A DNA stretch of 64,000 bases from Escherichia coli (GTDB taxonomy: Bacteria > Pseudomonadota > Gammaproteobacteria > Enterobacterales > Enterobacteriaceae). The position numbers and the translations under genes are program-made. Shown piece after piece: positions 4,693 to 23,805 of this stretch (position 1 is the first letter of the stretch; each line of letters begins with the position of its first letter). The stretch lies in NCBI RefSeq assembly GCF_030013595.1, contig NZ_CP122768.1. One strand, written 5' to 3'. The notes beneath the pieces were generated by a model. That model did not search any database. It saw only the letters and a list, made by a program, of their open reading frames with translations, and was not told where the DNA came from.

Positions 4693-4693
4693 T

Positions 4694-5290
4694 TTACACT
4701 TCCTCCGGATTAGCCAGATAACCAGTGGTATCGCCGGTCGGGCGGCTGTTGGCGTTAGGTTTGATAACGATATTGGGTTTTGTGAAATGCGCGCGCGGTA
4801 GTGGCGCGACGGCAGCCAGAGTGCCGTGCTTCTGGCGCAGCTCTTCAATTGGACCGAACTCAAGTGCACGCAGCGGGCAGGATTCGACACATATGGGTTG
4901 TTTCCCCTCGGCGACGCGCGAATAACAACCATCGCACTTCGTCATGTGTCCTTTTTCAGCATTGTACTGTGGCGCGCCGTACGGACAAGCCATGTGGCAG
5001 TAGCGGCAGCCGATACAAACATCTTCATCAACCACCACAAAGCCATCTTCACGCTTATGCATTGCGCCGCTGGGGCAGACTTTTGTACATGCGGGGTCAT
5101 CGCAATGGTTACAGGAGATGGAGAGATAATAAGCGAACACGTTCTGGTGCCAGACGCCGCCAGCATATTCATAAATACGGCGGAAACTGACTTCCGGGCC
5201 AAGATCTTTAAAATCTTTGCACGCCAGTTCGCAGGTTTTACAGCCAGTACAGCGGCTGGAATCGATAAAAAATCCATATTGTGTGGTCAT
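4694..5290 (-). CDS. ynfG: DMSO-reductase-type 4Fe-4S ferredoxin subunit
   Basis: 198 aa; four CxxCxxCxxxCP-type cysteine clusters; between ynfF and ynfH. Confidence 0.85.
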   Translation of the reverse strand: MTTQYGFFIDSSRCTGCKTCELACKDFKDLGPEVSFRRIYEYAGGVWHQNVFAYYLSISCNHCDDPACTKVCPSGAMHKREDGFVVVDEDVCIGCRYCHMACPYGAPQYNAEKGHMTKCDGCYSRVAEGKQPICVESCPLRALEFGPIEELRQKHGTLAAVAPLPRAHFTKPNIVIKPNANSRPTGDTTGYLANPEEV

Positions 5291-5300
5291 GGGCTACTCC

Positions 5301-7727
5301 TTAAACCTTTTCGATCTGGACAAGATTGCTGTGCGACGGGTTTCCCTTTGCCAGCGGTGAAGGGCGGTGAGAGGTCAGAATATTGATACTGCCGCCGTGA
5401 TCGACCCGGTCACCAAACATATCCGCTTTAAGCCACGCACCTTGCCCGATGGCGGTAACGCCAGGCAGAATACGCGGAGTCACTTTTGCGGCAATCAGCA
5501 TTTCTCCATTATTGTTAAATACCCGCACGGTATCGCCATGACGGATACCGCGTGCCTGAGCATCAATAGGGTTGATCCACACCTCTTGTGGGCAGGCCTG
5601 CTGTAACACATCAATATTGCCGTAGCTGGAGTGGGTACGCGCTTTGTAGTGGAAGCCCGTTAACTGCAGTGGATAGGTTTTCCGCAGGGGATCGTCCCAG
5701 CCATCAAAACCTGGGGTATACGCAGGAAGGGGATGAATAATTTCATCTTTTTTCAATTCCCAGGTATCCGCAATCGTCGCCAGTCGTTCAGAATAAATTT
5801 CGATTTTCCCCGAAGGTGTTTTCAACGGGTTTGCCTGTGGATCTTCACGGAATGCGCGGAAAGCGACGTAGTGTTCTTCCGGGCATTTTTTCTTAAAGAT
5901 CCCGGTCGTTTTCATCTCCTCGTAGTCGGGCATCTCAGGGTTACGTTCCTTCGTTTTCGCATGGAGATATTTGATCCATTCATGCTGACTGCGACCTTCA
6001 GTAAAGGTTTGATAAACGTCTGGTCCTAAGCGTTTGGCAACTTCACTCAGCATCCAGTAGATGGGTTTGCGTTCAAATTTTGCTGAGGTTGCGGGTTGGG
6101 CGAGGATCACATAGCCCATATTCCCGGCAGATTCGTGAGAGATAAGGTCTTCTTGCTCTGTTGGCATCAGGTCGGGCAACAGGATATCGCAATACTTAGC
6201 CGAGGCAGTCATGAAGTGGTCAATGCCAACAATCATCTCGCACTTGCTGTCATCCTGAAGCACCTCATGGGTGTGATTGATGTCGCCATGTTGATTGATC
6301 AATGTGTTACTGGCGTAGCACCATAAAAACTTGATGGGGACATCCAGTTTTTCTTTTCCACGAACACCATCACGGGTCGCGGTCATTTCCGTACCGTGGT
6401 CGATGGCATCTGTCCATGTAAAGACGGAAATCTGCGTTTTAACAGGATTCTCAAGCATCGGGAACCATTCTACCCCCAGATCCCAGCTACCTTCGCGTAC
6501 ACCTGAGTTGCCGCCGTTTATGCCGACGTTACCGGTGAGAACGGAAAGCATGGCAATAGCGCGGGACGTTTGTTCGCCGTTGGAGTGTCGTTGTGGCCCC
6601 CAACCCTGACAAATATAAGCAGGTTTTGCTGAACCGATCTCTCGTGCCAACTGGATAATTTTTTCTGCCGGGATGCTGGTGATTTTTGCTGCCCATTCCG
6701 GCGTTTTAGCTATGCCGTCAGGCCCTTCGCCCAGAATATAGGCTTTATAATGCGCGTTACGTGGTGCGTTGGCGGGCAGCGTTTTTTCATCGTAACCAAC
6801 ACAATATTTGTCGAGAAATGGCTGATCGACCATGTTTTCAGTAATCAGTACCCAGGCAATCGCACAGGCCAGTGCGCCATCGGTGCCTGGGCGAATTGGC
6901 AGCCATTCATCTTCACGCCCGGCAGCAGTGTCGTTATAACGTGGATCGATGACGATCATGCGTGCGTTTGAACGTTCTCGGGCTTGCTCGACGTAGTAAG
7001 TGACACCACCGCCGCTCATCCGGGTTTCTGCCGGGTTATTTCCGAACATAACGACCAGTTTCGTATTGGCTATATCATCCGGGCTGTTGCCATCATTGGC
7101 ACCGAACATATAACTCATTGCGGCACTGATTTGAGCGGTACTGTAGCTGCCATAGCGACTGAGAAAACCACCGCAAGAGTTCATCAGACGGTACGGGACG
7201 TTCGAGTTGGTGATGTTTCCGCCATCTACGCCTGTTCCGTACAGGACATGTACAGCCTCATTGCCGTAATCTTTAAGGATCCGCCGAAGATTATCACTGA
7301 TGGTATCCAGGGCTTCATCCCAACTTATCCGTTCAAATTTACCTTCACCGCGCTTGCCGACGCGCTTCATGGGATATTTCAACCTGTCAGGATGATTCAT
7401 CCGTCGGCGGATAGAGCGCCCGCGTAAACATGCCCGAACCTGATGATTACCGTAGACGTCGTCACCTGTCGTATCAGACTCCACCCAGTACACGGTGTCA
7501 TCTTTCACATGCAAACGTAACAGACAGCGGCTCCCGCAGTTAACGGTGCAGGAACTCCAGACCGCTTTCTCTTCTACCGGTGTCTCTGCCGCTCGGACCA
7601 TTTGGGAAAATGGCAGAGTGAAAGCACTGCTTGCCAGCGCAAGACTGCCAAGTGCGGAGGTTTTCATCAGACTTCTACGGCTGATTTCAGCCTTCATGAG
7701 CGCCTCTGTGGTATGGATTTTCATCAT
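5301..7727 (-). CDS. ynfF: molybdopterin oxidoreductase catalytic subunit (DmsA paralog) with Tat signal
   Basis: 808 aa; twin-arginine motif SRRSLMK; N-terminal CxxCxxxC cluster; intact paralog of the split ynfE. Confidence 0.9.
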   Translation of the reverse strand: MMKIHTTEALMKAEISRRSLMKTSALGSLALASSAFTLPFSQMVRAAETPVEEKAVWSSCTVNCGSRCLLRLHVKDDTVYWVESDTTGDDVYGNHQVRACLRGRSIRRRMNHPDRLKYPMKRVGKRGEGKFERISWDEALDTISDNLRRILKDYGNEAVHVLYGTGVDGGNITNSNVPYRLMNSCGGFLSRYGSYSTAQISAAMSYMFGANDGNSPDDIANTKLVVMFGNNPAETRMSGGGVTYYVEQARERSNARMIVIDPRYNDTAAGREDEWLPIRPGTDGALACAIAWVLITENMVDQPFLDKYCVGYDEKTLPANAPRNAHYKAYILGEGPDGIAKTPEWAAKITSIPAEKIIQLAREIGSAKPAYICQGWGPQRHSNGEQTSRAIAMLSVLTGNVGINGGNSGVREGSWDLGVEWFPMLENPVKTQISVFTWTDAIDHGTEMTATRDGVRGKEKLDVPIKFLWCYASNTLINQHGDINHTHEVLQDDSKCEMIVGIDHFMTASAKYCDILLPDLMPTEQEDLISHESAGNMGYVILAQPATSAKFERKPIYWMLSEVAKRLGPDVYQTFTEGRSQHEWIKYLHAKTKERNPEMPDYEEMKTTGIFKKKCPEEHYVAFRAFREDPQANPLKTPSGKIEIYSERLATIADTWELKKDEIIHPLPAYTPGFDGWDDPLRKTYPLQLTGFHYKARTHSSYGNIDVLQQACPQEVWINPIDAQARGIRHGDTVRVFNNNGEMLIAAKVTPRILPGVTAIGQGAWLKADMFGDRVDHGGSINILTSHRPSPLAKGNPSHSNLVQIEKV

Positions 7728-7784
7728 TACTCACTTATTGCTTTTCAAACAAAATGTCATGCCAGAATTTATGGTTGTAGTGGG

Positions 7785-8810
7785 TTATATTTTTTCGATC
7801 TCGACCAGATTAGTGTGCTGCGGGTTTCCCTTCGCCAGTGGTGAAGGGCGCAGAGTGGTTAGCGTATTCACACAGCCGCCATGGTCGATTTTATCGCCAG
7901 ACATATTGGCCTCGTGCCAGGCTCCCTGGCCCATAGCGCTAACCCCAGGGAGAATGCGTGGTGTTACTTTGGCTGGTAGCCGAACTTCGCCACGATGGTT
8001 AAACACCCGCACCATATCGCCGTTGGCAATCCCACGTTTCTGTGCATCTATAGGGTTGATCCACACCTCCTGACGGCAGGCTTCCTTCAGGACATCAATA
8101 TTGCCGTAGGTCGAGTGGGTACGGGATTTGTAATGGAAACCAAACAGTTGCAGTGGGAAGGTTCTACGTTCAGGGGAGTCCCAGCCTTCAAAGGTTGAGG
8201 CATAAACTGGCAGTGGGCTTATCACTTCATCTTTTTCCAGTTCCCAGGTACGGGCAATTTCCGCCAGCTTGCTGGAATAAATTTCAATCTTACCGGAAGG
8301 CGTTTTAAGTGGATTTGCCTCGGGGTCGTCACGAAATGCTTTGTAGGCGACAAAATGACCATTGGGATCTTTACGCTTATAGATACCCATTTTTTTCAGT
8401 TCGTCGTAAGACGGTAACGCCGGATCTTTGGCAAGCATTTTGGCGTACAGATGTTGTAACCATTGTTCCTGCGTGCGACCTTCTGTGAACTTTTGATAGA
8501 CGTCAGGTCCAAGACGTTTCGCGACTTCACTCAGGATCCAGTAAATCGGTTTGCGTTCGAATTTTTCGCTGGTGACTGGCTGAAGGAAAATGAGATATCC
8601 CATGTTACCTGCGTAGTCGTTAGGAATAATATCTTCCTGCTCAACGGTCATCAGGTCTGGCAGCAGAATGTCGGCATATTTTGCCGATGAGGTCATAAAG
8701 TTTTCGATGACCACAATCATTTCGCATTTCGATTCGTCCTGCAGAATTTCATGCGTTTTGTTGATGTCAGAATGCTGATTAACCAGGGTATTTCCCGCGT
8801 AGTTCCAGAT
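7785..8810 (-). pseudogene. ynfE: ynfE C-terminal fragment (gene split by insertion at 8811)
   Basis: In-frame ynfE sequence from codons I-W-N-Y (8799-8810) to stop at 7785; ORF track upstream extension 8811-8951 is element DNA read in the wrong context. Confidence 0.85.
8801..8810. repeat. left copy of 10-bp direct repeat AGTTCCAGAT flanking the ynfE insert (att core or target duplication)
   Basis: Identical 10-mer at 18242-18251; both copies encode ynfE residues IWN. Confidence 0.8.
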
Positions 8811-8876
8811 GGACTCCACTGTCAGACGGATGGACGGACTTGAAGTAGTTGACTCAACGCTACTTAAGGTCCTGAT

Positions 8877-10485
8877 ATGACTGACATTAACTATGATAAT
8901 ACTGTATATCCATCCAGCTCTTTCTCTGGGTCTCCCTATCTGTATGGGCAAGTCTACACCTCAAGTCCTGACACAAGGCTGACACAAATCAATCTACTCA
9001 GCGTAGCTAAGCCTCAGTTAGTCCGTAGAGCCAATGGTCGATATACTATCCGCTTCAGACTCAAGGGACAGACCACACCGTTTCTTTCAGTATCGACCCG
9101 AAGCACAGACAGGAGAGTAGCCACAATGCGTCAGAGAGAGCTTGCAGCCACAGCTAAGGCCTTCATGTTGGATAGGCCTGAAGTCTCACTACAGGAGCTT
9201 ACAGAGCATCTCCGGTCTATGGCTGAGCAGTTCCTGACAGACGCTAGTGACGATTACTGGAATGGACTTGAGGTCGCTACTTTGGTGGACGAGAAGTCCA
9301 ACCTGAAGGAGCTAGCCGCTACGCAAGCCTTGAGTCTGGACCAGCAGAAGGGCATAAGGTTAGCGCTTGAAGTCCTGACCGCAGCACAGCAGAGGGTAGA
9401 TACTGGTGATACGTCCAGTCTAATCAAGCTGATTGGTGGTGGCGTAAGCCAGCTTACTGATGGAGATGACAATAACCTTACTAATAACTCAACTATATGC
9501 GACTCTACGTTGATTCTGAGGAACGAGCAGGGGGTCAGCCCGCAAGTATTCACGAGAGAGCGCCAACCATCTGTAGTTTTTTCAAGCCTAGTGTCCTCAC
9601 TGCTGGCTGAGAAGGTCCAGACCCTGAAGTCCTCCAGCTACAAGGACCTGTCGTCCTCACTGAATACCGTCTCTCGGTTTCTGCCTGAAGATATGGACCT
9701 GATGTCCCGCTCTGAGTGGCTGGCAGTGAGGGACGCTATGCTGGCTGCTGAGGTGAGACCATCGACAATCAACAAGCTGCTGACCAAAGCGAAGATGTGT
9801 CTCGATTATGGCCTGATGAATGGGCAACTTGAGGGCCGCAACCCTATTGAACGGATGAAGCTGACCAAGGATACCGACTCCAAGCGCAGAGCGTTCACAG
9901 ACGAGGAGCTGGAGAGACTTCTGGTCCGTGTTGAGGCTGAGTATCAGTTCACACGACACACGGCTCACACGACCTCTGAGGCCCGTAGATGGGCGTCTCT
10001 GGTGTCTGTGGTCACTGGCGCGAGGTCTGCTGAGGTCTGCCACCTGACTAAACGTGACGTTGTAACCTTGGACAATGGACTGGTCTGTATCGACATCAAT
10101 GAAGATGGGGACGGGAAGTCTGTGAAGAACAAACATTCAGTCCGACTTGTGCCGTTAACCGATGGGGCCTGTGGTTTCAGCCTGAAGTCCTTCCTCAAAT
10201 GGGTAGACACTCAGCCTGCTGATGGTCCCCTCTTTGGTATGACTCCGAGTGCCTACTCTAGTTGGTTTAACTCTAGGGTCCTGACTGAGGCCCTAGGAGA
10301 CGCTGAGAACGTTTCTCCACAGTCTGAGACATTGGCTGGCGACCCGAATGAAAGAGCGTGGAGTCAATCTGGTGGACGCTCAAGGCATCTTAGGTCACAG
10401 CAGTCAGTCCATTACGTATGACCTGTACGGGAAAGGACACGCTGTTGGTAGGCTGGCTGAGGTGCTGAAGACAGCTTTACTTTAA
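8877..10485 (+). pseudogene. tyrosine recombinase/integrase, apparently frameshifted near 10297-10330
   Basis: N-terminal arm-binding-like segment (GRYTIRFRLKG...STRSTDRRVA); catalytic domain residues in frame A up to 10421; conserved HSLRHWLATRM...LGHSS...YDLYGKGH C-terminus is in the +1 frame ending at 10485. Confidence 0.65.
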
Positions 10486-10644
10486 GTAGGAAGACCCAAG
10501 GTGGAGACCATATACGGCTTGATGGTTGAGACCTTGGGTCACTGAAGTCTGACTGAAGTTAGGGAGGGTGATAATAATCATAATCCCTCCTGACTATAGG
10601 CCCACTGGTTCGCCTTCGGCTGTCCGACTCTAAGTCTGTCTGTG

Positions 10645-10776
10645 GTCTTATTTAAACTGGTTCCCTAACTCAGGTCCTCCAACTTGGTGTCTTATTTAAA
10701 CTGGTTCCCTAACTCAGGTCCTCCAACTTGGTGTCTTATTTAAACTGGTTCCCTAACTCAGGCCCCTCCAAATTTC
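10645..10776 (+). repeat. 44-bp tandem direct repeat, about 2.7 copies (candidate iterons/origin or regulator binding array)
   Basis: Unit GTCTTATTTAAACTGGTTCCCTAACTCAGGTCCTCCAACTTGGT at 10645-10688 and 10689-10732, third copy diverges after about 30 bp. Confidence 0.8.
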
Positions 10777-10792
10777 GTTGTCTGTCAGCGAC

Positions 10793-10818
10793 TTAAATAT
10801 CCCCTCACCTTAGAAGAG
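10793..10818 (+). promoter_or_regulatory. phage single-subunit-RNAP-type promoter P1 (class A, CCCCTCAC upstream)
   Basis: TTAAATATCCCCTCACCTTAGAAGAG; T7-supergroup -17..+6 architecture, predicted +1 G at 10813. Confidence 0.55.
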
Positions 10819-10833
10819 TTTAGGGTTCAGACC

Positions 10834-10857
10834 CTTAACTATCACCTTAGGAGAGAC
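10834..10857 (+). promoter_or_regulatory. phage single-subunit-RNAP-type promoter P2 (class B, AACTATCAC upstream)
   Basis: CTTAACTATCACCTTAGGAGAGA; predicted +1 G at 10850; 45 bp upstream of ORF 10902. Confidence 0.55.
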
Positions 10858-10901
10858 GGGCCGTCCTCCACCCAATCAAAACCTTAAGAGGAGGACCATA
10901 C

Positions 10902-11402
10902 ATGGCTATTAAAATTCAGTGCTACACCGAGTCCGACAATGCGGCTTTCTTCGGTGACGATTCCGACCTCCAGCACCAGCTACCAGCACCGACATATGAC
11001 GAACCTAAGGCCCGCACAGGTAAGCCTCCTGTGGTCATCGACAACCGGGCTGTCCGTGCGTGGCTGATTGAGACTGGGTGTCTCTCCTATACGCAGCTTG
11101 TTGAGGCGTACCCGTGGGCTGACGATGTGTTCACAGGACTCTCACGGGCTACCAGTGGCGCTGTCGGTGCTGGACTCCCGGTATCTAAGGCGTACCTGTT
11201 CTCTGCCTTATATGGCACCAACGACATCTTCTCCCGTAACACAGCCAAATCCTACGCTGACATCACTGGGCGTTCACCGTCTCCTCGCTACCTGCGCCAC
11301 GTCAATAGCGTGCTTCAGGCTACGGCTGTGAATCTGGCTAAGGTTCTGAAGGACCGAGGGGATTTCACATGGTGGGATTACAACGATCAGTGCCTGTCCT
11401 GA
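10902..11402 (+). CDS. hypothetical protein, first gene downstream of P1/P2
   Basis: 166-aa ORF with strong RBS AAGAGGAGG; no family recognised. Confidence 0.6.
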   Translation: MAIKIQCYTESDNAAFFGDDSDLQHQLPAPTYDEPKARTGKPPVVIDNRAVRAWLIETGCLSYTQLVEAYPWADDVFTGLSRATSGAVGAGLPVSKAYLFSALYGTNDIFSRNTAKSYADITGRSPSPRYLRHVNSVLQATAVNLAKVLKDRGDFTWWDYNDQCLS

Positions 11403-11424
11403 GAGCCGCGCCAGCTCTGGGCTG

Positions 11425-11448
11425 GAATACCCCCTCACTATAGGGACA
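11425..11448 (+). promoter_or_regulatory. phage single-subunit-RNAP-type promoter P3 (class A; T3-like CC at -11/-10)
   Basis: GAATACCCCCTCACTATAGGGACA; 13/13 match to T7 consensus from -9 to +4 (CTCACTATAGGGA). Confidence 0.7.
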
Positions 11449-11451
11449 CCC

Positions 11452-11477
11452 CCTAAACTATCACTATAGGGGGGACC
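11452..11477 (+). promoter_or_regulatory. phage single-subunit-RNAP-type promoter P4 (class B)
   Basis: CTAAACTATCACTATAGGGGGGACC; TCACTATAGGG core. Confidence 0.65.
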
Positions 11478-11712
11478 AACCTTGCCTCTGCTTCTGATGC
11501 GTCAGAACACGCGAGGTCCTCCCGACATTAAGTATTCTCCTAAGTAATCAAGGCCCGTGACCGCCTCTGACAGACCTCCTGTATCGACCTCCAGCTCGTT
11601 AGCGTTCTTTAGTCGTCTCGGTTAGTAGGTAACCGGCTCATTTAAACCGTCTGGTCTGTTTCCTCCGGCTCTACAAAAATAATGTCCATCATTTTTTAAT
11701 GGACACTATCGT

Positions 11713-12360
11713 ATGAAACACCGGACCTGGATCACTGAAGCTTTACGTCTTCACTTTGAAGAACATTTACCCCGGGTTGTGGCCGGGCGTCGCCTGGGTG
11801 TACCAAAATCAACAGTTTGTAGTATGTTCGTGCGCTTTCGGAGAGCTGGCCTTTCGTGGCCTTTGCCCGCAGGCATGTCGGAGCAGGAACTTGATGCCTG
11901 CCTTTACGGACAATTTTCCACGGTACCAGTCGTACGTCCTGAAAGCACCGTTATATCCGAAGCCCCCGTGGTAAAAAAACGTCCCCGGCGGCCCAACTTC
12001 CCTTATGAGTTTAAAATCGCCTTAGTGGAGCAGTCACTGCAGCCCGGAGCCTGTGTGGCGCAGATCGCCCGGGAAAACGGAATCAACGATAACCTGCTCT
12101 TCAACTGGCGCCATCAATACCGGAAAGGTGGCCTGCTGCCTTCCGGAAAAAATATGCCGGCACTGCTTCCCGTGACGTTAACGCCGGAGCCGGATAATAA
12201 AATCCCGGCCCCCGCACAGGAACCAGAGCAGATAAATACACCGTCCGACAGTCTGTGTTGTGAGCTGGTTCTGCCGGCCGGAACTCTCAGGCTTAAAGGT
12301 AAACTGACGCCGGCGTTATTACAGACACTTATCCGCGAAATAAAAGGGAGCAGCCACTGA
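11713..12360 (+). CDS. IS66 accessory protein (orf1/TnpA-like)
   Basis: 215 aa, first ORF of IS66 triad; identical to copy-2 ORF. Confidence 0.8.
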   Translation: MKHRTWITEALRLHFEEHLPRVVAGRRLGVPKSTVCSMFVRFRRAGLSWPLPAGMSEQELDACLYGQFSTVPVVRPESTVISEAPVVKKRPRRPNFPYEFKIALVEQSLQPGACVAQIARENGINDNLLFNWRHQYRKGGLLPSGKNMPALLPVTLTPEPDNKIPAPAQEPEQINTPSDSLCCELVLPAGTLRLKGKLTPALLQTLIREIKGSSH

Positions 12361-12707
12361 TGATATCTCTCCCTGCAGGTTCGCGTATCTGGCTGGTTGC
12401 AGGTATCACCGATATGCGAAATGGCTTTAACGGCCTGGCATCAAAAGTTCAGAACGTCCTGAAGGATGACCCGTTCTCCGGACACCTGTTCATCTTCCGC
12501 GGACGCCGGGGTGACCAGATAAAAGTGTTGTGGGCTGACAGTGACGGACTGTGCCTCTTCACCAAACGCCTGGAGCGGGGCCGCTTCGTCTGGCCAGTCA
12601 CCCGTGACGGCAAGGTGCACCTTACTCCGGCTCAGTTATCCATGCTTCTTGAAGGTATCAACTGGAAGCACCCGAAACGAACGGAACGCGCTGGAATCCG
12701 CATATAA
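12360..12707 (+). CDS. IS66 Orf2 (TnpB-like)
   Basis: 115 aa, overlapping start with preceding stop (ATGA); typical IS66 orf2. Confidence 0.8.
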   Translation: MISLPAGSRIWLVAGITDMRNGFNGLASKVQNVLKDDPFSGHLFIFRGRRGDQIKVLWADSDGLCLFTKRLERGRFVWPVTRDGKVHLTPAQLSMLLEGINWKHPKRTERAGIRI

Positions 12708-12726
12708 CCCGTTGTAAAGTGAGGAT

Positions 12727-14298
12727 ATGGACACCTCACTTGCTCATGAGAACGCCCGCCTGCGGGCACTGTTGCAGACGCAACAGGACACCATCCGCCA
12801 GATGGCTGAATACAACCGCCTGCTCTCACAGCGGGTGGCGGCTTATGCTTCCGAAATCAACCGGCTGAAGGCGCTGGTTGCGAAACTGCAACGTATGCAG
12901 TTCGGTAAAAGCTCAGAAAAACTTCGTGCAAAAACCGAACGGCAGATACAGGAAGCACAGGAGCGAATCAGCGCACTTCAGGAAGAAATGGCGGAAACGC
13001 TGGGTGAGCAATATGACCCGGTACTGCCATCCGCCCTGCGCCAGTCTTCAGCCCGTAAACCGTTACCGGCCTCACTTCCCCGTGAAACCCGGGTTATCCG
13101 GCCGGAAGAGGAATGCTGTCCTGCCTGTGGTGGTGAACTCAGTTCTCTGGGATGTGATGTGTCAGAGCAACTGGAGCTTATCAGCAGCGCCTTTAAGGTT
13201 ATCGAAACACAACGTCCGAAACAGGCCTGTTGCCGGTGCGACCATATCGTACAGGCACCAGTACCTTCAAAACCCATTGCACGCAGTTATGCCGGAGCGG
13301 GGCTTCTGGCCCATGTTGTCACCGGGAAATATGCAGACCATCTGCCGTTATACCGCCAGTCAGAAATATACCGTCGTCAGGGAGTGGAGCTGAGCCGTGC
13401 CACACTGGGGCGCTGGACAGGTGCTGTTGCTGAACTGCTGGAGCCGCTGTATGACGTCCTGCGCCAGTATGTGCTGATGCCCGGTAAAGTCCATGCTGAT
13501 GATATCCCCGTCCCGGTCCAGGAGCCGGGCAGCGGTAAAACCCGGACAGCCCGGCTGTGGGTCTACGTCCGTGATGACCGTAACGCCGGTTCACAGATGC
13601 CCCCGGCGGTCTGGTTCGCGTACAGTCCGGACCGGAAAGGTATCCATCCACAAAATCACCTGGCCGGTTACAGCGGTGTGCTTCAGGCCGATGCTTACGG
13701 TGGTTACCGGGCGTTATACGAATCCGGCAGAATAACGGAAGCCGCGTGTATGGCTCATGCCCGGAGAAAAATCCACGATGTGCATGCAAGAGCGCCCACC
13801 TACATCACCACGGAAGCCCTGCAGCGTATCGGTGAACTGTATGCCATCGAGGCAGAGGTCCGGGGCTGTTCAGCAGAACAGCGTCTGGCGGCAAGAAAAG
13901 CCAGAGCCGCGCCACTGATGCAGTCACTGTATGACTGGATACAGCAACAGATGAAAACACTGTCGCGTCACTCAGATACGGCAAAAGCGTTCGCATACCT
14001 GCTGAAACAGTGGGATGCACTGAACGTGTACTGCAGTAATGGCTGGGTGGAAATCGACAACAACATCGCAGAGAACGCCTTACGGGGAGTGGCCGTAGGC
14101 CGGAAAAACTGGATGTTCGCGGGTTCCGACAGCGGTGGTGAACATGCGGCGGTGTTGTACTCGCTGATCGGCACATGCCGTCTGAACAATGTGGAGCCAG
14201 AAAAGTGGCTGCGTTACGTCATTGAACATATCCAGGACTGGCCGGCAAACCGGGTACGCGATCTGTTGCCCTGGAAAGTTGATCTGAGCTCTCAGTAA
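12727..14298 (+). CDS. IS66-family DDE transposase (Orf3/TnpC)
   Basis: 523 aa with leucine-zipper-like N-terminus, CxxC...CxxC zinc motif and DDE region. Confidence 0.85.
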
Positions 14299-14582
14299 AT
14301 ATCAATACGGTTCTGACGAGTCGCTTACGTTAGTAGCTCGTCTACTCACTACATTGGCTTAAGTCTATCACCGCTCACCATCTGGAGTCCTTACAGCTCG
14401 TCCTGACATGCGGTCTCACCTTATATGCACATGGAGAACATGGCCACTCCAGACCAACACTAATCAACATTAACCCTATTCACTTTCGTTAAGCATTTTT
14501 TGGTGGGTCCGTTTGGATGCATTGAATAGGTGCGGACTCCACGTGGAGACAGAAAGTGCTTTACTAAAGGAGCATCCTTTAT

Positions 14583-14972
14583 ATGACTATTAAATCCATC
14601 GTTATCAACGGTAAGACCATCCTGTCTACACCTAACGCCATCAATGAGGGTGTCTGGTTCGACATGCTTGAGGTCCATCAAGCTGCTGGCTTGCCTGCTA
14701 ACAAGACGTTCTCACAGTGGCGCAGCCGACAGTCTCGTGCATTAGAAGAGGCTGGAGAGGTGTCGTTTGACAGTGTACAGAAGACCCTGTGTGGCAGCTT
14801 TGTGGCAGTGCTGGCCTACCTTATGTGGGCGGACCTTACTCTCTGGCTGGCGGTGGTTCGTTACGTTGCGTCTGAGACTATCGGCGTCCTGCCTGACCGC
14901 TTCAAGTCTATCGACGGTGATAACCCCGAGTTAGAAATGTCAGAGGATAACAGCGAGTGGGAGGACTTCTAA
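14583..14972 (+). CDS. KilA-N domain protein (short)
   Basis: 129 aa; N-terminal motif WFDMLEVHQAAGLPANK...WLAVVRYV resembling KilA-N; strong RBS AAGGAG. Confidence 0.55.
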   Translation: MTIKSIVINGKTILSTPNAINEGVWFDMLEVHQAAGLPANKTFSQWRSRQSRALEEAGEVSFDSVQKTLCGSFVAVLAYLMWADLTLWLAVVRYVASETIGVLPDRFKSIDGDNPELEMSEDNSEWEDF

Positions 14973-14973
14973 G

Positions 14974-15714
14974 ATGACCATGAGCCAGCTTGAAGCATTA
15001 CCTATCGTCATCGAGGGTCATTCATTCATCTGCAACGACCAGCGCATGTGGAACCTGAACGAGATTCACCGAGTGTTAGGTCTTCCAGCAAGCAAGATGC
15101 CGTCTGAGTGGAATAACAAGATTCGCACACAACTTGACCGCTCCGGAAATTTCCGGACCGTGAATGGTGACGGCGGTGGTACATGGGCGACCGAGGCTGG
15201 GACCGTGGCTTATGCTATGTGGGTCTCTACAGATTTCTACCTGATGGTCATCAATGCTTTCATCTTTATGCGTAACGACGCAATCGTCCGAGAGCGTGTA
15301 GCGGTCAAACAGGCTGACGAGGCTAACGCTAACCTCTCCATCGCAGCACCTAAGGCAGACATCTTTGACGGTCGTCTGACCAATGGTGGCTCTGTTCCGT
15401 GGAACTGGGCGTGTAAATCTTTGGGTCTTGCCCCGATGAAACTGAAAGAGGGCTTGAAGCGCTCCGGTAAGTTCGTCCAGAAGTGGAACCCTGACAGTTA
15501 CGCCGACGAGCTTCGACCTCAGGAGAAGGCGTTCAGTATTGGACTATTCGTCACTAAGTCAGTCATGGGTAAAGACACATGGCAGGTGACAGCTAAAGGC
15601 TACGCATGGATGCAGGGGAACGCCCAGAAGTGGAGAGAGCTAATAGCTGATGGTGACCGCTTAAAGGCTGCTGAGCGTCGAGCACAGAAGCGTCTTAACC
15701 GTGGAGGTAAGTAG
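14974..15714 (+). CDS. KilA-N domain protein with C-terminal extension
   Basis: 246 aa; MWNLNEIHRVLGLP...NGDGGGTWATEAGTVAYAMWVSTDFYLMVI typical of KilA-N; start 2 nt after preceding stop. Confidence 0.6.
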   Translation: MTMSQLEALPIVIEGHSFICNDQRMWNLNEIHRVLGLPASKMPSEWNNKIRTQLDRSGNFRTVNGDGGGTWATEAGTVAYAMWVSTDFYLMVINAFIFMRNDAIVRERVAVKQADEANANLSIAAPKADIFDGRLTNGGSVPWNWACKSLGLAPMKLKEGLKRSGKFVQKWNPDSYADELRPQEKAFSIGLFVTKSVMGKDTWQVTAKGYAWMQGNAQKWRELIADGDRLKAAERRAQKRLNRGGK

Positions 15715-15716
15715 TC

Positions 15717-15941
15717 ATGGCTATGATTGACCCTCGTACACCTATCGGCAAAGCGACCCTTCGTTACCGTGGTCTGCCTACACGTCATCTGCTGTCCCTG
15801 CTGAGACTTGGAGTCGAAGACCCCGAACGCCCGTACTACAGTCGAGACGAGCTAATAGCTATGTTGGTGGACCGTGATTTAGACAATCAGTTACGCCGAG
15901 CCTTTGCGAAGTCTAGCGCAGCTAGGGAACTGGAGTCCTGA
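15717..15941 (+). CDS. hypothetical protein
   Basis: 74-aa ORF, start 3 nt after preceding stop, same strand. Confidence 0.45.
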   Translation: MAMIDPRTPIGKATLRYRGLPTRHLLSLLRLGVEDPERPYYSRDELIAMLVDRDLDNQLRRAFAKSSAARELES

Positions 15942-16146
15942 ACCTTATGGGGCAGAAAAACCGCCGCATAAACCTATCGTCTGCTGACCGAAGTTTCGAC
16001 GCATTGAGCCAGACGGAAAAGTTTTCCTGCTGGTAAACCACCTTAATTTAAACACCTTTTGAGAATGACCGATGCGGGGAGACCCGTAGGCATAACTGTG
16101 TCTGCGATACCGATAGTTCTCACCTTCTCAATAGGAGTACTACCTT

Positions 16147-16638
16147 ATGTTATTCAACAACAACGACTGGAAACTATCAGTCACCGACATCAATCCCTAT
16201 GAAAATACTGTGAGTCTGGACGGTCAGTCCTATCCGCTGTCTCTGGCGATTAAGACCCTGATTCCGGGCTACCTGTCAGGCTTACCGTCCACCAGCCGCG
16301 AGGCGATGGAGTTACTGGAAGCTCTGGCTGAAGCTGGCGTGTCCATTGGCAACTTCTTCAGTAATGACCTGATGACCGCCTATGGTCGCCGCCAGCAGAA
16401 CAAGCGAGCCGAAGCTGAGCGTATTGCTAAAGAGCAGCGCATTCAGGCTGAGCGTATGCGTGAAGAGAACATGACTGATGCAGAGTGGCAGAAAGAGCTA
16501 CAGCGCCGTGAACAGGTCAAAGCTGAACGCCGGACCTATGGTGAGCACCTCCGCAGTGCTACCCATTCCGCTGGGCGCTCCCGTGCTTCTATGGTCGCTG
16601 ACATTGAGTCCACGGACAACTGGATGGACAGCCTCTAA
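16147..16638 (+). CDS. hypothetical charged coiled-coil protein (scaffold-like?)
   Basis: 163 aa; RBS AGGAG; C-terminal K/R/E-rich helical segment. Confidence 0.5.
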   Translation: MLFNNNDWKLSVTDINPYENTVSLDGQSYPLSLAIKTLIPGYLSGLPSTSREAMELLEALAEAGVSIGNFFSNDLMTAYGRRQQNKRAEAERIAKEQRIQAERMREENMTDAEWQKELQRREQVKAERRTYGEHLRSATHSAGRSRASMVADIESTDNWMDSL

Positions 16639-16704
16639 GACACAGACACACAAGTGGTCCTGACCTGATGTCGGGACCCACAGTATCCAAACTAATTTAG
16701 GAGA

Positions 16705-17700
16705 TTGATTATTATGACGATTAAAGACGCTTTCCAGTTCGGCATTGAGCCAGTACGTATCAGCGACACCGACAACATTCAGATTAACGAAGGTTTGCCA
16801 ACTAACGCAGACCCGCAGGTCTATGCCCTCCAGTTAGCTAAGACGGTTAAGGCTATGCTGAACGGTGTACTTAAAGACGCTCAAGAGAACATCCCGTTCC
16901 CTGTAGAAGTCCTGCCGACCCGCAATAGCCTGCCTACTCCAATCATTGCTCACACTCTGGCTGATCGCTCTGTGGTCGTTCCTGTCCGTGGTGGTAAGCG
17001 ACCTGAAGTCGTGACCGTTCCGTCTGGACAAGAAATCGTGGTCGAACCAATCGAGCAGGCTATTCTCATCTCTGAGCAGACCAAGCTCTGGGACGCCAAG
17101 TCATCCACCGGATTCACTCAGGGCACACTTCAGCAGGACGCTATGAACATCTGTGAGAATGTGGTCCGTACCATCAACGCTCGCATGGTCGACGTTCTGG
17201 AGTCCTCCAAACTGTTGAAGACCGTAGAGCTGCCAGTCCTGACTGGAAGCCTGACCACTAAGGCAGACGCTATCATGGACGCTCTGTTTGAGAACACCGA
17301 GTCCTCTTTCGGCTCTGAAGTGTCTGATTACGGCATCATCGCCCATGAGTCCCAACTGAAAGCGCTGTCCCGTCTGGCAGCTAAACAGGGCTTCTCTGGT
17401 GGAGACGCTATCGTGGATATGCTGGGTACCGACATCGCCTATTACAACGGTGAAGACAAGGGTGTATTCATGCTGGCTAAACGCTTCACGGCCCTGAGCT
17501 TCGGCTGCTTCCGTCACGACGGTGAGAATATTACGGTCGTCCTTTCACGTGATGGCGACTCTCAGTCCCACGACTTGGAAATCCTCGGTAAAGTGTTCGT
17601 TGTCGCTGAAGCTGCTACGACCATCAAGATGGGCACTGGCTCAGCTACTGCCGTCCTGCCTGTAGTCAAACGCCTGAAGTTCACCAAGACCGAAGCGTAA
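16705..17700 (+). CDS. hypothetical 331-aa protein (possible virion/structural protein; unverified)
   Basis: Long ORF with RBS AGGAG directly downstream of coiled-coil ORF; no motif recognised. Confidence 0.5.
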   Translation: MIIMTIKDAFQFGIEPVRISDTDNIQINEGLPTNADPQVYALQLAKTVKAMLNGVLKDAQENIPFPVEVLPTRNSLPTPIIAHTLADRSVVVPVRGGKRPEVVTVPSGQEIVVEPIEQAILISEQTKLWDAKSSTGFTQGTLQQDAMNICENVVRTINARMVDVLESSKLLKTVELPVLTGSLTTKADAIMDALFENTESSFGSEVSDYGIIAHESQLKALSRLAAKQGFSGGDAIVDMLGTDIAYYNGEDKGVFMLAKRFTALSFGCFRHDGENITVVLSRDGDSQSHDLEILGKVFVVAEAATTIKMGTGSATAVLPVVKRLKFTKTEA

Positions 17701-17844
17701 GACCAATGGGTAAGAGGTAAGTCTGGACTGAATATCAGCAGGACTTCAGGTGGTGGCCTGTCACTGTGATTAACTAACTACGGTCTGGACCAATGGTCTG
17801 GGCCTTATTACTGGTATGGTAGTATACAGGCGAAGGAGGACCCA

Positions 17845-18000
17845 ATGTCTATGACTTCCGCAGACCTAAGGTCCCTCCTGACTCTGGTCTATAAACTCGT
17901 GTTCCTCTCTGTGGGTCTCTACATGGTTCTCTCTGGTCGACTCGGTGTGGATGTGTTCGACACTCTGTCTAAGGCTGTGGGTGGACTTCTAGGTCCTTAG
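17845..18000 (+). CDS. small hydrophobic protein (51 aa, one predicted TM helix)
   Basis: ATG 17845 with RBS GAAGGAGG; LVFLSVGLYMVLSG hydrophobic core; below ORF-track length cutoff. Confidence 0.4.
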   Translation: MSMTSADLRSLLTLVYKLVFLSVGLYMVLSGRLGVDVFDTLSKAVGGLLGP

Positions 18001-18241
18001 GTTTGGACTCACAGTGGGACCGATGATTTCTGACAGAAAAATGTGAATGACCATCTAATACATTAAGCCAGCAGACTTCCCCCCATAGTCCCGCCTCAAG
18101 TCCAGACCGAGGCCACCGGGGGTCCTGACCAGCCGTCTAGACATCCCGTCTAATGACACAAGTCTGGCACAAAGCCTGACACAAAGTCCTTGACTCAATG
18201 CAGGACCTCAGGCCTACTAAGGGTCCGCTTCAAGTCCTTGA

Positions 18242-18251
18242 AGTTCCAGAT
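18242..18251. repeat. right copy of 10-bp direct repeat AGTTCCAGAT
   Basis: Identical to 8801-8810; ynfE sequence resumes here. Confidence 0.8.
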
Positions 18252-19652
18252 GAACTTAATGGGCACATCCAGTTTATCTTTGCCGCGGACGCCGTCGCGG
18301 ATTGCCGTCATTTGCGGGCCATGATCGATAGCATCCGTCCAGCTGAAGCAGGAGATTGACGTTTTGACCGGATTATCCAGCACCGGTAGGCGTTCTATGG
18401 TAATGGTATAGGTCGATTCACGCGCGCCACTATTCCCGCCGCTGATGCCGACATTGCCCGTCAAAATAGGCAACATAGCAATAGCGCGTGCGGTCAGCTC
18501 ACCGTTTGCCTGGCGTTGCGGCCCCCAGCCCTGGCAGATATAAGCGGGTTTTGCTGTGCCAATTTCACGCGCCAGTTTGATGATACGGTCCACCGGGATA
18601 CCGGTAATTTGCGAAGCCCACTGCGGCGTTTTCGCTGTTTTATCGTCACCTTCACCAAGAATATAGGCTTTATAGTGACCATTTTTTGGTGCATCTGCGG
18701 GTAAGGTTTTTTCGTCATAGCCGACGCAGTATTTATCAAGAAAAGGTTGATCAACGAGATTTTCGTTAATCAATACCCAGGCAATACCCGCAACCAGCGC
18801 GGCATCGGTGCCCGGGCGAATAGGAAGCCATTCGTCTTCACGACCGGCAGCCGTATCGGTATATCGCGGATCGATAACAATCATTTTTGCGTTCGATTTC
18901 TCGCGCGCTTTTTCAAGAAGATAAGTGATGCCACCACCGCTCATGCGGGTTTCTGCCGGGTTGTTACCAAACATCACGACCAGCTTGCTGTTTTCAATAT
19001 CCGTGGTGCTGTTGCCATCATTACTGCCGTAGGTGTAGGGCATGGCACAGGAAATTTGCGCGGTGCTGTAGGAGCCATACTGGTTGAGTGAGCCGCCGTA
19101 GCAGTTCATCAGGCGTTTGACCGCCGAGGCGGATGGCGAAGAGCGGGTCATATTGCCGCCAACAATCCCCGAAGAGTACTGAATATATACAGCCTCATTG
19201 TCATATTGTTCGACGGTTTTTTTCAGGCTACTGGCGATAGTATCCAGGGCTTCATCCCAGCTAATCCGTTCGAATTTGCCTTCGCCGCGTTTGCCCACGC
19301 GTTTCATTGGGTAATTCAAGCGGTCGGGATGATTAATACGCCGACGGATGGAGCGACCGCGCAAACAGGCGCGTACTTGATGATTGCCATACTCATCGCT
19401 GCCGGTGTTGTCAGTTTCCACCCAGGTCACTTCATTATCTTTAACATGCAGACGAAGTGCACAGCGGCTACCACAGTTGACGGAACAGGCACCCCAGACC
19501 ACTTTCTCGCTGGCCTGTTGTACTGCTGCCGCTGCACTGCGCAGGGTGAACGGTAAAGAAAAACCGCCTGCAGCCAGCGCCAGAGAACCTATCGCGGTAG
19601 ATTTAACGAGTGTTCTGCGGCTGATGCCCACCATTTGTTCATTTTTGGACAT
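18243..19652 (-). pseudogene. ynfE: ynfE N-terminal fragment (Tat signal, catalytic subunit) ending at insertion junction
   Basis: 470 ynfE codons from MSKNEQMVGISRRTLVKS to IWN at 18243; ORF then runs 16 codons into element DNA to a stop at 18195. Confidence 0.85.
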
Positions 19653-19850
19653 AACTCACTCCCTGTTCTTTATCGTTATATAAAAGTTTATATATTGAAT
19701 ATTTAGCGCGCTAACAATAGAGGGAGTCTACCTATTTTGGGTTAAGAATTATTAATCCATATCAATAGAAGGGTATGAGTAATAAAGTGGGATTATGTTG
19801 TATGTTCAAATCGCCGGATGTGTCGTATCCGGCGTGCTGTCGATAATGTG

Positions 19851-20156
19851 TTACTGCGGTTCGGCAGGCGCGCCATCCTGGGTAGACTGCGCGGGAGCAG
19901 AGACGTTACCGCTGGTGGTGCGGGTGTAGAGAATTTTATGCGTATCATTAGCGCAATGCCCGACGACCTGGGAATCAGGCTGATCAACCTGGTCATTGGG
20001 TACAATACTTAACGTGAAGCTGCTTTCGGGAACGCCATTATTGATAATGCGCTGTGATATATCGCTCTGTATGCGCTCACAGGATCCCGGCGCGGCGAGT
20101 ACCGCGGGTGAGGCGAGGGCGAGCAGAAGCGCGGCACAGCAGGTTGAGAGTTTCAT
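19851..20156 (-). CDS. ynfD: DUF1161 periplasmic protein
   Basis: 101 aa from MKLSTCC with signal peptide; synteny. Confidence 0.8.
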   Translation of the reverse strand: MKLSTCCAALLLALASPAVLAAPGSCERIQSDISQRIINNGVPESSFTLSIVPNDQVDQPDSQVVGHCANDTHKILYTRTTSGNVSAPAQSTQDGAPAEPQ

Positions 20157-20263
20157 CATAAGCTCCTTACGCGAAGATAACTTCTTTAAGCATAGCATTT
20201 AACGTGTAAAGTACTGTATTTGCTACTATGATTGAGAATCATCTCTACTCTCTGGTGACTGTT

Positions 20264-20974
20264 GTGAAATACAAATTACTGCCATGCTTACTCGCGATAT
20301 TCCTCACAGGATGTGACCGCACAGAGGTAACACTTTCATTTACCCCTGAGATGGCCAGTTTCTCTAATGAATTCGATTTTGATCCGCTGCGTGGTCCGGT
20401 AAAAGATTTCACTCAGACATTAATGGATGAGCAAGGTGAAGTGACGAAACGTGTTTCTGGGACTTTGTCGGAAGAAGGCTGTTTTGATTCACTCGAATTA
20501 CTGGATCTGGAAAATAATACCGTGGTCGCTCTGGTACTGGACGCCAATTATTACCGTGATGCCGAGACGCTGGAGAAGAGAGTACGTTTACAGGGAAAAT
20601 GCCAGCTAGCAGAATTACCTTCTGCCGGGGTGAGTTGGGAAACCGATGATAATGGCTTCGTGATTAAAGCCAGCAGCAAACAGATGCAGATGGAATATCG
20701 CTATGATGATCAGGGGTATCCGCTGGGTAAAACCACGAAAAGTAACGACAAAACATTATCTGTCAGCGCCACGCCATCAACGGATCCGATCAAAAAATTA
20801 GATTACACAGCGGTTACTTTACTGAATAATCAACGGGTTGGTAATGTAAAACAGAGCTGTGAATATGACAGTCACGCCAATCCGGTGGACTGTCAGCTAA
20901 TCATTGTTGATGAAGGAGTAAAACCCGCCGTCGAACGGATTTACACCATCAAAAATACTATCGATTATTATTAA
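20264..20974 (+). CDS. ynfC: UPF0257 lipoprotein
   Basis: 236 aa from probable GTG start; lipobox LTGC; synteny. Confidence 0.8.
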   Translation: MKYKLLPCLLAIFLTGCDRTEVTLSFTPEMASFSNEFDFDPLRGPVKDFTQTLMDEQGEVTKRVSGTLSEEGCFDSLELLDLENNTVVALVLDANYYRDAETLEKRVRLQGKCQLAELPSAGVSWETDDNGFVIKASSKQMQMEYRYDDQGYPLGKTTKSNDKTLSVSATPSTDPIKKLDYTAVTLLNNQRVGNVKQSCEYDSHANPVDCQLIIVDEGVKPAVERIYTIKNTIDYY

Positions 20975-20976
20975 TG

Positions 20977-21537
20977 CTATTGTGCGGTCGGCTTCAGGAG
21001 AGTCTGACCCGGTGTTTTGTGCTCTGCCAGATACTGATGCTGGAATATACACATGCGAATAGCATTACGATATTGACCATTAATAAAAAACTCATGCATC
21101 AATTCACCTTCAACCGTAAAGCCAAGCTTGCGGTAAATGTGAATCGCTTTTTCATTCTCTTTATCAACGATCAGATACAGCTTATAGAGATTGAGAACGG
21201 TGAAGCCATAGTCCATTGCTAATTTGGCGGCACGGGTTGCCAGACCTTTCCCTTGATACTCCGGGGAGATAATTATCTGAAATTCTGCGCGGCGATGAAC
21301 ATGGTTAATTTCCACCAGCTCCACCAGACCGGCTTTTTCGCCGTCACATTCCACCACAAAGCGCCGTTCGCTCTGATCGTGAATATGCTTATCGTACAGA
21401 TCAGAGAGTTCAACAAAGGCTTCGTAGGGTTCCTCAAACCAGTAACGCATCACACTGGCGTTATTGTCGAGTTGATGTACATAGCGTAAATCTTCACGCT
21501 CCAGCGGGCGTAGCTTAACACTGTGGGCGCTTGGCAT
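20977..21537 (-). CDS. speG: spermidine N1-acetyltransferase
   Basis: 186 aa GNAT-family sequence matching recalled SpeG. Confidence 0.9.
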
Positions 21538-21571
21538 AACGTGTCCTTACATTCCTTAAATCAATAACAGG

Positions 21572-21913
21572 TTAGGGGGTAATAACGCGGCCAGTTCGAC
21601 GGTCCAGGCAGCGCAAAGTATTTGGCTCCCAGTAGGCATTGATGTTGGCGCTTTGCTCACATTTATCGCGGTTATCAAAAGCGGCGTCGGCTTTATCCCA
21701 CTCTTTTTCAGTGCGTTTATTCACTTTCTGGCGCAGATTGCGCGTGTCATTCCATTGCTCTTTTTCCATAGCGGCGTGCTGGCGGCTTTGTGCACTGTCG
21801 CCAGACTCAATCACCAGTTTGTTAGTTTCGGCATGAACAGTTGTGCTCAATGCCAGTGCGCAAGGCAGCAGAAAAGCGAGCAGGCCAATTCGTTTGCTGA
21901 GAGTAATTTTCAT
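21572..21913 (-). CDS. ynfB: UPF0482 secreted protein
   Basis: 113 aa with signal peptide; synteny. Confidence 0.8.
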
Positions 21914-22047
21914 AATTCATTCCCTGTATGAATGATTAAAGGTGATTCTACACCATCCACTGCGAACGCAAAACGTACCAGGAGGATGTTTATATTGATG
22001 ATATTATGTCGTCCTATAACTATACATGATGTCAATAAGTGACAAAG

Positions 22048-22374
22048 ATGATTAAAACAACGTTACTATTTTTTGCTACTGCGCTGTGTGAAATTATTGG
22101 ATGCTTTCTGCCCTGGTTGTGGTTAAAACGAAACGCCAGTATCTGGCTGTTACTTCCGACGGGGATTTCTCTGGCACTGTTTGTCTGGTTGTTAACGTTG
22201 CATCCTGCGGCGAGTGGGCGTGTTTACGCGGCTTATGGTGGCGTTTATGTCTGCACGGCGTTGATGTGGCTGCGCGTTGTGGATGGCGTGAAACTGAGTC
22301 TTTATGACTGGACGGGGGCATTGATTGCGCTTTGCGGCATGTTGATCATTGTTGCGGGCTGGGGGCGCGCGTAA
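22048..22374 (+). CDS. ynfA: UPF0060 small membrane protein
   Basis: 108 aa from MIKTTLLFF; multi-TM. Confidence 0.8.
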
Positions 22375-22579
22375 GGACATAAATCCATTTTATCAATAAG
22401 ATACAAGGAAGTGTCAGCTGACAAAAGGTATTCTATTTCATCTTTTGTCAACCATTCACGGCGCAAATATACGCCTTTTTTTGTGATCACTCCGGCTTTT
22501 TTCGATCTTCATACTTGTATGGTAGTAGCTCAGTTGCGTAGATTTCATGCATCACGACAAGCGATGCAAGGAATCGAAC

Positions 22580-23794: not shown

Positions 23795-23805
23795 GGAGTA
23801 AGATA

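Follow-up and report, generated by a model that had tools for sequence, protein, structure and literature searches.

A survey of integrative elements across 2,168 genomes (Mageeney et al., 2020, PMC7192596) lists in its supplement two islands, Eco892.7.ynfE and Sfl13.8.ynfE, of 7 and 8 kb, that disrupt the Molybdopterin domain of ynfE without restoring it. These ynfE islands were listed as candidates for "regulated gene integrity", with a published domain-disruption ratio of 1.88 (PMC7192596). Here we analyze an island of this kind in a 64,000-nucleotide stretch of Escherichia coli DNA (assembly GCF_030013595.1, contig NZ_CP122768.1; the whole stretch is referred to as the window), in which ynfE, a catalytic-subunit gene of the ynfEFGH-dmsD selenate/tellurate reductase operon, is cut in two by a site-specific integrative element whose own tyrosine integrase is frameshifted.

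The window island and the two catalogue entries correspond in host gene, in the Pfam Molybdopterin domain that is hit, in size class (7-8 kb), in the presence of a tyrosine integrase, and in occurrence in E. coli and Shigella; they are equated here by gene, size, and host, not by alignment. The window copy differs in being larger (9.4 kb), through an IS66 element, and in the integrase frameshift. With this pairing of island and site already published, the split of ynfE is itself a known polymorphism. Mid-gene integration is likewise seen for skin in sigK, phi10403S in comK, and the mlrA prophage, where precise excision rebuilds the open reading frame (ORF) (PMC7192596). For these elements regulated excision and a physiological role have been demonstrated (PMC7192596), whereas the window copy has lost its integrase reading frame. 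In the literature we found no experiment on excision or phenotype of ynfE islands.

A site-specific island splits ynfE

When the ynfD-ynfG segment of E. coli K-12 was compared with the window by BLASTN, two collinear blocks were obtained (4602-8815 and 18242-20721), the inner ends of which overlap by 15 bases of K-12 sequence. In TBLASTN searches YnfE residues 1-471 matched positions 19652-18240 and residues 465-808 matched positions 8819-7788, both on the minus strand. The split locus comprises:

7785-8815, minus strand: C-terminal fragment of ynfE, residues ~471-808 and the stop codon, without native start codon or promoter
8801-8815, no strand: left attachment (att) repeat, AGTTCCAGATGGACT, a hybrid of attB and attP
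8877-10485, plus strand: tyrosine integrase, a pseudogene here, starting 62 bp inside the left att repeat
18242-18256, no strand: right att repeat, AGTTCCAGATGAACT, identical to the K-12 attB sequence
18195-19652, minus strand: N-terminal fragment of ynfE, 470 native codons followed by 15 island-encoded codons and a stop

A first-pass annotation of this DNA had placed the interruption after about codon 470 and held ynfE to be inactivated. The break point is exact, as the N-terminal ORF runs from 470 native residues straight into the 15 residues of island origin, and inactivation is borne out by a split in the middle of the molybdopterin domain for which nothing is supplied to restore it. The N-terminal fragment retains the twin-arginine translocation (Tat) signal, the FS0 Cys motif, and part of the molybdopterin domain. 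The C-terminal fragment is 98% identical over residues 465-808 by TBLASTN and contains no internal stop or frameshift. Judged from sequence, both pieces are predicted to be non-functional, with no replacement coding sequence coming from the island. Removal of the island in silico rebuilds a stop-free ynfE ORF of 808 amino acids (aa) with nine substitutions relative to K-12.

From repeat to repeat the insert measures 9,441 bp, and the native island is ~6.7 kb. The annotation had counted 9.4 kb of foreign DNA plus an IS66; the size of the insert stands, but the IS66 lies within the 9,441 bp and does not add to it. The att repeats form an imperfect 15-bp direct repeat, of which K-12 holds a single copy, with a perfect 11-bp core, AGTTCCAGATG; the attB rebuilt on excision would contain CGCGTAGTTCCAGATGAACTTAATGG. 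Every gene of the island and of the IS66 is on the plus strand, opposite to the ynf operon. A tyrosine recombinase is thus found at one end of the insert, the flanking repeats match attB, and both recurrent occupation of the site and empty sites are documented (below). We conclude that the insert is one site-specific integrative island, which encodes a tyrosine integrase of its own and targets a conserved attB within ynfE.

The reading we favor, with a probability of roughly 0.85, is that a tyrosine-recombinase-integrated element split ynfE, that the integrase frameshift and the IS66 came later, and that ynfE is now a fixed pseudogene. In the order of events that we infer, the island attP would have recombined with the 15-bp attB at ynfE codons 466-471 via the shared 11-bp core, cutting ynfE in two with no replacement coding sequence supplied. 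After integration, an IS66 identical to the one found 11.5 kb away would have transposed into the island, and a 2-bp deletion would have stripped the HxxR/His/Tyr catalytic region from the integrase frame. With self-excision lost, ynfE would be fixed as a pseudogene in this strain and YnfE-dependent activity would be lost. The ynfF, ynfG, ynfH, and dmsD ORFs are intact, yet lie 9.4 kb of opposite-strand genes away from the operon promoter. The site-specific nature of the element, its recurrence across genera, its prior publication, the secondary origin of the IS66, and the integrase frameshift had been missed by the first-pass annotation, as had the ynfG allele and the consequence for dmsD that are described below.

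The junction recurs across genera

A 500-bp probe of the left junction was found at full coverage in 148 of 5,426 complete E. coli genomes (~3%), and therefore the insertion is no chance resemblance; 5,105 of the 5,426 carry an uninterrupted ynfE site. Five further E. coli genomes share the left-junction sequence exactly. Wherever else an island-bearing locus was examined (17 loci), the break falls at YnfE residue 470/471. Carriers in Enterobacter hormaechei and Citrobacter freundii are split at the same codon, in the only catalytic gene of their operon. Integrases are at least 93% identical across Escherichia (including E. albertii), Shigella, Enterobacter, Citrobacter, and Leclercia, and a diverged island lineage with an integrase of 89% and a capsid-like protein of 44% identity occupies the same break. 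The pattern of recurrence is that of an actively spreading site-specific element and not of random insertion.

An island-free genome that is nearly isogenic with the window was also found (L011; GCA_020301305.1, contig ABCXTN010000001.1). Its left flank is identical at 7800 of 7800 positions, and its right flank has two mismatches in 5,744 bases. Gain or loss of the island was therefore very recent. The near-isogenic island-free genome is a new point; the natural pair with and without the island would allow a clean test of polarity and of "regulated gene integrity".

A complete related island of ~80% identity occurs on a contig of its own (L004; Logan contig SRR29836470_72561, 6,661 bp), the ends of which lie ~15 bp outside a different 16-bp repeat, TAGTTCAGATTGAACT. 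By its sequence this island appears to occupy another target, one similar to the attB of ynfE. The breaking of the contig at its att sites suggests a sample in which some copies of the target are occupied and others empty.

The integrase of this copy is frameshifted

The island integrase has a PHROG integrase match (E=6e-24), and Pfam PF00589 is present in its intact 528-aa orthologs. A 2-bp (TA) deletion near position 10317 became evident when the gene was aligned with the unbroken one of strain PM4-5. The frame shifts just ahead of the SLHSLRHW (HxLRH) motif, which together with the catalytic Tyr is put out of frame; a 45-codon ORF of its own holds the LGHSS…Y segment. Consistently, the TBLASTN match is split over two frames, covering residues 1-507 and 473-528. 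No excisionase was recognized among the island ORFs in Pfam and PHROG scans. Since the integrase is broken, this copy can probably no longer excise by itself, and the disruption of ynfE is probably permanent. The frameshift of this copy is a new point.

Intact integrases prevail elsewhere, as 14 of the 17 other island copies have a single-frame gene. Independent integrase frameshifts are present in two of the copies, L002 and L030, and L002 is additionally frameshifted in its C-terminal ynfE fragment. From these independent lesions it follows that in-situ decay recurs.

IS66 copies in the island and in the adjacent prophage

The IS66 of the island is one of two identical copies of this insertion sequence (IS) in the window:

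11629-14328, plus strand: IS66-family element, ISCro1-like, with tnpA, tnpB, and tnpC, assigned by Pfam and delimited by comparison with IS-free islands
25802-28501, minus strand: second IS66 copy, inverted, identical to the island copy at 2700 of 2700 positions, with target duplication TTAAGATT

The borders of the island copy (2,700 bp) were set by comparison with IS-free islands, which places the insertion in an island intergenic region, and an 8-bp target duplication, GTTAGTAG, is present at 11621-11628 and 14329-14336. Its Pfam matches (HTH_Tnp_1, TnpB_IS66, and DDE_Tnp_IS66) assign it to the IS66 family, with whose ISCro1-like members it shares the tnpA/tnpB/tnpC set, the 2.7-kb length, and the 8-bp target duplication, with no difference of note. 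The island carries this IS66 as a passenger that was acquired secondarily, and no complete E. coli genome searched shared its insertion point.

The second copy splits the tyrosine integrase of an adjacent lambdoid prophage (flanks 25013-25789 and 28498-29016), separating its Arm-DNA-binding N-terminal part from the catalytic C-terminal part. The island and the prophage, the two mobile elements of the region, are thus both predicted to be disabled. The inverted IS66 pair, with its members ~11.5 kb apart, is a substrate for inversion of 14329-25801.

Islands of this family are very often loaded with IS elements at differing positions (L002, L005, L007, L018, L022, L026, and hit H3). The types found in island copies are IS66, IS21 (ISEc12, IS100), or IS3, the element in H3 being IS100 in strain EC100. 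It would seem that IS elements frequently target this small island, or that it tolerates them as a landing pad.

Alternatives to a fixed split

Because two identical IS66 copies lie within the window, one might ask whether the whole insertion is due to IS66 transposition, as a composite transposon or through an IS-mediated rearrangement, or whether it is an assembly artefact. We give this next to no credence. The island IS66 has its own target duplication inside the island, and the island ends are att repeats beside an integrase gene, not IS ends; moreover, IS-free islands interrupt ynfE at precisely this point in many genomes and genera, and their identical junctions refute both the IS66-driven insertion and the artefact. 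A different case can be made for an island that still is a working reversible switch, with an integrase supplied in trans or a frameshift that is a sequencing error, so that excision restores ynfE. The ynfE halves are free of secondary lesions, and their conserved coding region is disrupted without restoration and rebuilt by precise excision in silico, as expected for regulated gene integrity; the clade was proposed as a candidate for it (PMC7192596). The near-identical island-free relative, the single-frame integrases of most other copies, and the related-island contig that ends just outside its att repeats, as it would if occupied and empty sites coexist, point the same way. Against this, a functional recombinase is not found in the element, the frameshift having cost the window integrase its HxxR, His, and Tyr; the IS66 puts 2.7 kb into the regulatory or intergenic region of the island; and no excisionase is recognized among its ORFs. 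The ynfE islands are not known to undergo regulated excision, near-identical flanks fit a very recent acquisition equally well, and frameshifts that arose independently in three copies look like decay rather than maintenance. We therefore regard a switch still at work in this strain as improbable.

Some points do weigh against a fixed split. The exact 514-aa truncated integrase product is absent from a collection of 15 billion proteins, and the 2-bp deletion is known from the assembly, not from reads; its position outside a homopolymer argues against a typical sequencing error, without excluding one. In addition, a related integrase elsewhere in the genome, of which the window represents 64 kb, could act in trans.

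Consequences for the rest of the operon

The promoter region and the genes downstream of ynfE were compared with K-12:

3181-3795, minus strand: dmsD, Tat chaperone for DmsA, YnfE, and YnfF; last operon gene, intact by TBLASTN
3838-4692, minus strand: ynfH, membrane anchor subunit, intact (TBLASTN, 284/284 residues, 97.9% identity to K-12)
4694-5290, minus strand: ynfG, 4x[4Fe-4S] subunit, a 198-aa allele, in frame by alignment to K-12
5301-7727, minus strand: ynfF, paralogous catalytic subunit, intact by NCBIfam and TBLASTN
19653-19853, minus strand: ynfD-ynfE intergenic region with the operon promoter region, conserved relative to K-12

As the first-pass annotation had it, ynfF is intact: 807 of 807 residues align to K-12 YnfF by TBLASTN at 99.75% identity, and the protein passes the NCBIfam selenate_YnfF model NF041884 (1775.2 bits against a cutoff of 1650). 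DmsD aligns over 204 of 204 residues with 98% identity to K-12. The ynfD-ynfE intergenic region gave an ungapped 98% alignment to K-12, by BLASTN and by direct comparison. It is said to hold an FNR-dependent promoter, a result attributed to Xu, Busby and Browning in 2009. The junction coordinates agree with the earlier view that foreign DNA lies between this conserved promoter region and ynfF-ynfG-ynfH-dmsD.

In ynfG, a 21-bp in-frame deletion between short GGCG repeats removes GDWQEDN (K-12 residues 45-51); the deletion point is near 5157/5158 on the minus strand, and every Cys ligand is retained. The exact 198-aa protein was found on at least 235 contigs, with ynfE and ynfF intact in six of eight loci read, and a 198-aa form is also present in Shigella boydii. 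The allele is widespread in E. coli and mostly accompanied by intact ynfE and ynfF, so that decay brought about by the island was ruled out as the source of the deletion. By this distribution the 198-aa ynfG is a standing allele and not a consequence of the island.

All island genes are antisense to the operon, and therefore a transcript from the operon promoter would arrive at ynfF only after crossing 9.4 kb of antisense sequence that is not translated past the premature stop at 18195. Over such a stretch, termination by Rho would be expected. It is plausible that production of YnfFGH and DmsD from the operon promoter is strongly reduced, unless internal promoters exist. Since dmsD is the last gene of the operon and its product is needed for maturation of DmsA, YnfE, and YnfF and of DmsABC (PMC12096835, PMC10609526), we infer that a polar effect could reach the dimethyl sulfoxide (DMSO) reductase. 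So recent a gain or loss of the island would by itself account for the undecayed downstream genes.

Polarity might nevertheless be slight, with ynfF-ynfG-ynfH-dmsD expressed at near-normal levels from promoters in the 3' half of ynfE, between ynfE and ynfF (a 60-bp spacer), or ahead of dmsD. In strain EC958, basal level and response of ynfF differ from those of ynfE by quantitative reverse-transcription PCR (PMC12096835), a difference that, by analogy, is compatible with an internal promoter softening polarity and in that respect also weighs against the reading we favor. None of the island-bearing loci examined, including those of other genera, has a damaged downstream ORF, and the requirement of DmsABC maturation for DmsD (PMC12096835, PMC10609526) means that selection would favor independent expression. 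However, intact ORFs are equally explained by recent insertions, the ynf operon is described as a single FNR-dependent transcription unit (PMC5203670), and no promoter-like sites above chance were found in 7600-9300. The scans for promoter and terminator consensus sequences were themselves uninformative, with counts at or below shuffle expectation in both 7600-9300 and 8700-18400. We consider near-normal expression possible but doubtful.

Island carriers lack YnfE and, if polarity holds, would also have less YnfFGH and DmsD. Weaker selenate and tellurate reduction, and possibly weaker DMSO respiration, would then be expected in ~3% of E. coli. The Enterobacter and Citrobacter carriers would lose their only Ynf/Srn-type catalytic subunit. 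Such consequences are modest; they bear on pangenome metabolic models and on the reading of selenate-reduction phenotypes.

The island encodes a conserved capsid-like protein with a predicted HK97 fold

Three genes are constant across island variants, namely those for the integrase, a ~160-aa protein, and a ~330-aa protein. The latter two are represented in the window by:

16147-16638, plus strand: 163-aa protein preceding the capsid-like gene, with homologs in divergent islands
16705-17700, plus strand: 331-aa HK97-fold major-capsid-like protein, recognized by AlphaFold2 and Foldseek

The 331-aa protein was modeled by AlphaFold2 from a 34-sequence alignment with a predicted local distance difference test score (pLDDT) of 85 and a predicted template modeling score (pTM) of 0.80. 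Foldseek was run against PDB and BFVD; with the exception of a few BFVD entries that were unnamed or otherwise labelled, the 50 top matches listed per library were major capsid proteins of phages or encapsulins. Matches had probability 1.00 and E values of ~1e-9 to 1e-10, and the TM-scores were low (0.3-0.5). Low TM-scores are usual for the flexible HK97 fold. An exhaustive search yielded 63 relatives of the protein, and no Pfam, PHROG, or NCBIfam match was obtained. It had no tblastn match in 50,697 phage genomes, nor did the 3.9-kb cargo half of the island have a blastn match in the same set. Four IMG/VR matches were considered as helper phages and ruled out, being chromosomal or IS-ridden copies and not phage genomes. 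The conserved cargo with a predicted HK97 fold and no match to any deposited phage is a new point.

In the AlphaFold2 model of the 163-aa protein, which is of moderate confidence (pLDDT 75), a small N-terminal beta domain leads into a long helical hairpin with a disordered C-terminus, and the sole structural match was the hypothetical Shigella protein 5EUR. No enzyme domain was recognized in it, and it matched neither a sequence family nor a deposited phage. From its modeled shape and its place ahead of the capsid-like gene, a scaffold-like role might conceivably be proposed. Another genome has the same module (integrase, KilA-N/ANT regulator, and proteins of 155 and 332 aa) at a different place in its chromosome, with a capsid protein of 35% identity.

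Several described systems resemble this arrangement, most closely Ccm of SaPIbov5 and a set of metagenomic mini elements. Capsid-fold proteins are known from phage satellites: Ccm of SaPIbov5, capsid homologs in PmCI172 and EcCICFT073, and the proteins of cfPICIs (Dokland, 2019, PMC6893505; bioRxiv 10.1101/2022.09.08.507074). These share with our island a small integrase island, an HK97-fold protein, and an antirepressor-like regulator. The cfPICIs are 10-17 kb, whereas the island is much smaller and lacks a recognized replicase, terminase small subunit, portal, protease, and packaging site. Indeed, Pfam, PHROG, and NCBIfam scans of the island ORFs revealed neither satellite replication genes (primase or replicase) nor packaging genes or sites (terS, cos/pac, portal, protease). 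Metagenomic "twilight-zone" mini elements of the HK97 fold, 5-11.6 kb long, have an integrase and regulators and no portal, terminase, or tail genes (bioRxiv 10.1101/2025.06.18.659913). Compared by description, these agree with the island in size class, gene content, and absence of packaging and tail genes; they are metagenomic contigs with unnamed hosts, whereas the island resides in cultured Enterobacteriaceae at a defined att site.

Encapsulins were among the top Foldseek matches. The setting of the capsid-like gene, on an island that carries an integrase and antirepressor-like genes, speaks for viral or satellite ancestry. Tentatively, the islands might form an undescribed family of minimal (~5-7 kb) capsid-encoding elements of Enterobacteriaceae, phage satellites or interference elements for which ynfE is a mere landing site; such a role is hypothetical, and we think it somewhat unlikely as it stands. 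The capsid-like protein would in that case build or poison small capsids of a helper phage, and the switch-off of selenate reductase would be a by-product. Either way, the capsid-fold cargo offers a culturable and genetically tractable example of very small HK97-fold elements, so far mainly metagenomic, and together with the natural isogenic pair it is the part of this locus most worth following up.

Other contents of the island

The remaining island features are:

10645-10771, plus strand: 44-bp tandem repeat, 2.9 copies (Tandem Repeats Finder score 238, 97% matches)
10902-11402, plus strand: hypothetical 166-aa ORF in a variable module, located by sequence comparison
14583-15714, plus strand: 129-aa hypothetical ORF, followed by a 246-aa KilA-N/ANT antirepressor-like protein (Pfam, PHROG)
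8965, 9372, 10278, 14400, 16657, 17236, and 18122, plus strand: octamer GTCCTGAC, by window scan

The 44-bp tandem repeat sits directly downstream of the integrase gene and looks, by its sequence arrangement, like iterons or protein-binding sites. The variable module that follows (10682-11451) is unrelated to its counterpart in the PM4-5 island and 99.6% identical to that of the strain OkiPb01717 island; its 166-aa ORF had no Pfam, PHROG, or PADLOC match. The KilA-N protein scored 25.1 bits against Pfam KilA-N (cutoff 23.8), matched PHROG anti-repressor families, and is 27.5% identical to KilA of phage P1. This regulator module varies among islands, consisting of KilA-N/ANT, Rha, or an added HNH endonuclease, the last only in Citrobacter island variants. 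The cargo is thus mosaic.

A defense system was considered as cargo and rejected, as PADLOC returned only one weak match, of the KilA-N protein to the PDC-S22 candidate system (E=2e-4). No Rfam match to a structured RNA was found at E up to 0.1 across 7600-20000. A conserved 51-codon ORF for a hydrophobic peptide lies near the right island end (17845-18000); it has no family match, and it is called as a gene in L028 and L029.

The octamer GTCCTGAC has seven copies in the 6.7-kb island, all on the plus strand, and one more occurrence in the other 54 kb; the mean in shuffles of the entire window was 1.56. In close island relatives five to six copies are retained in the same orientation.

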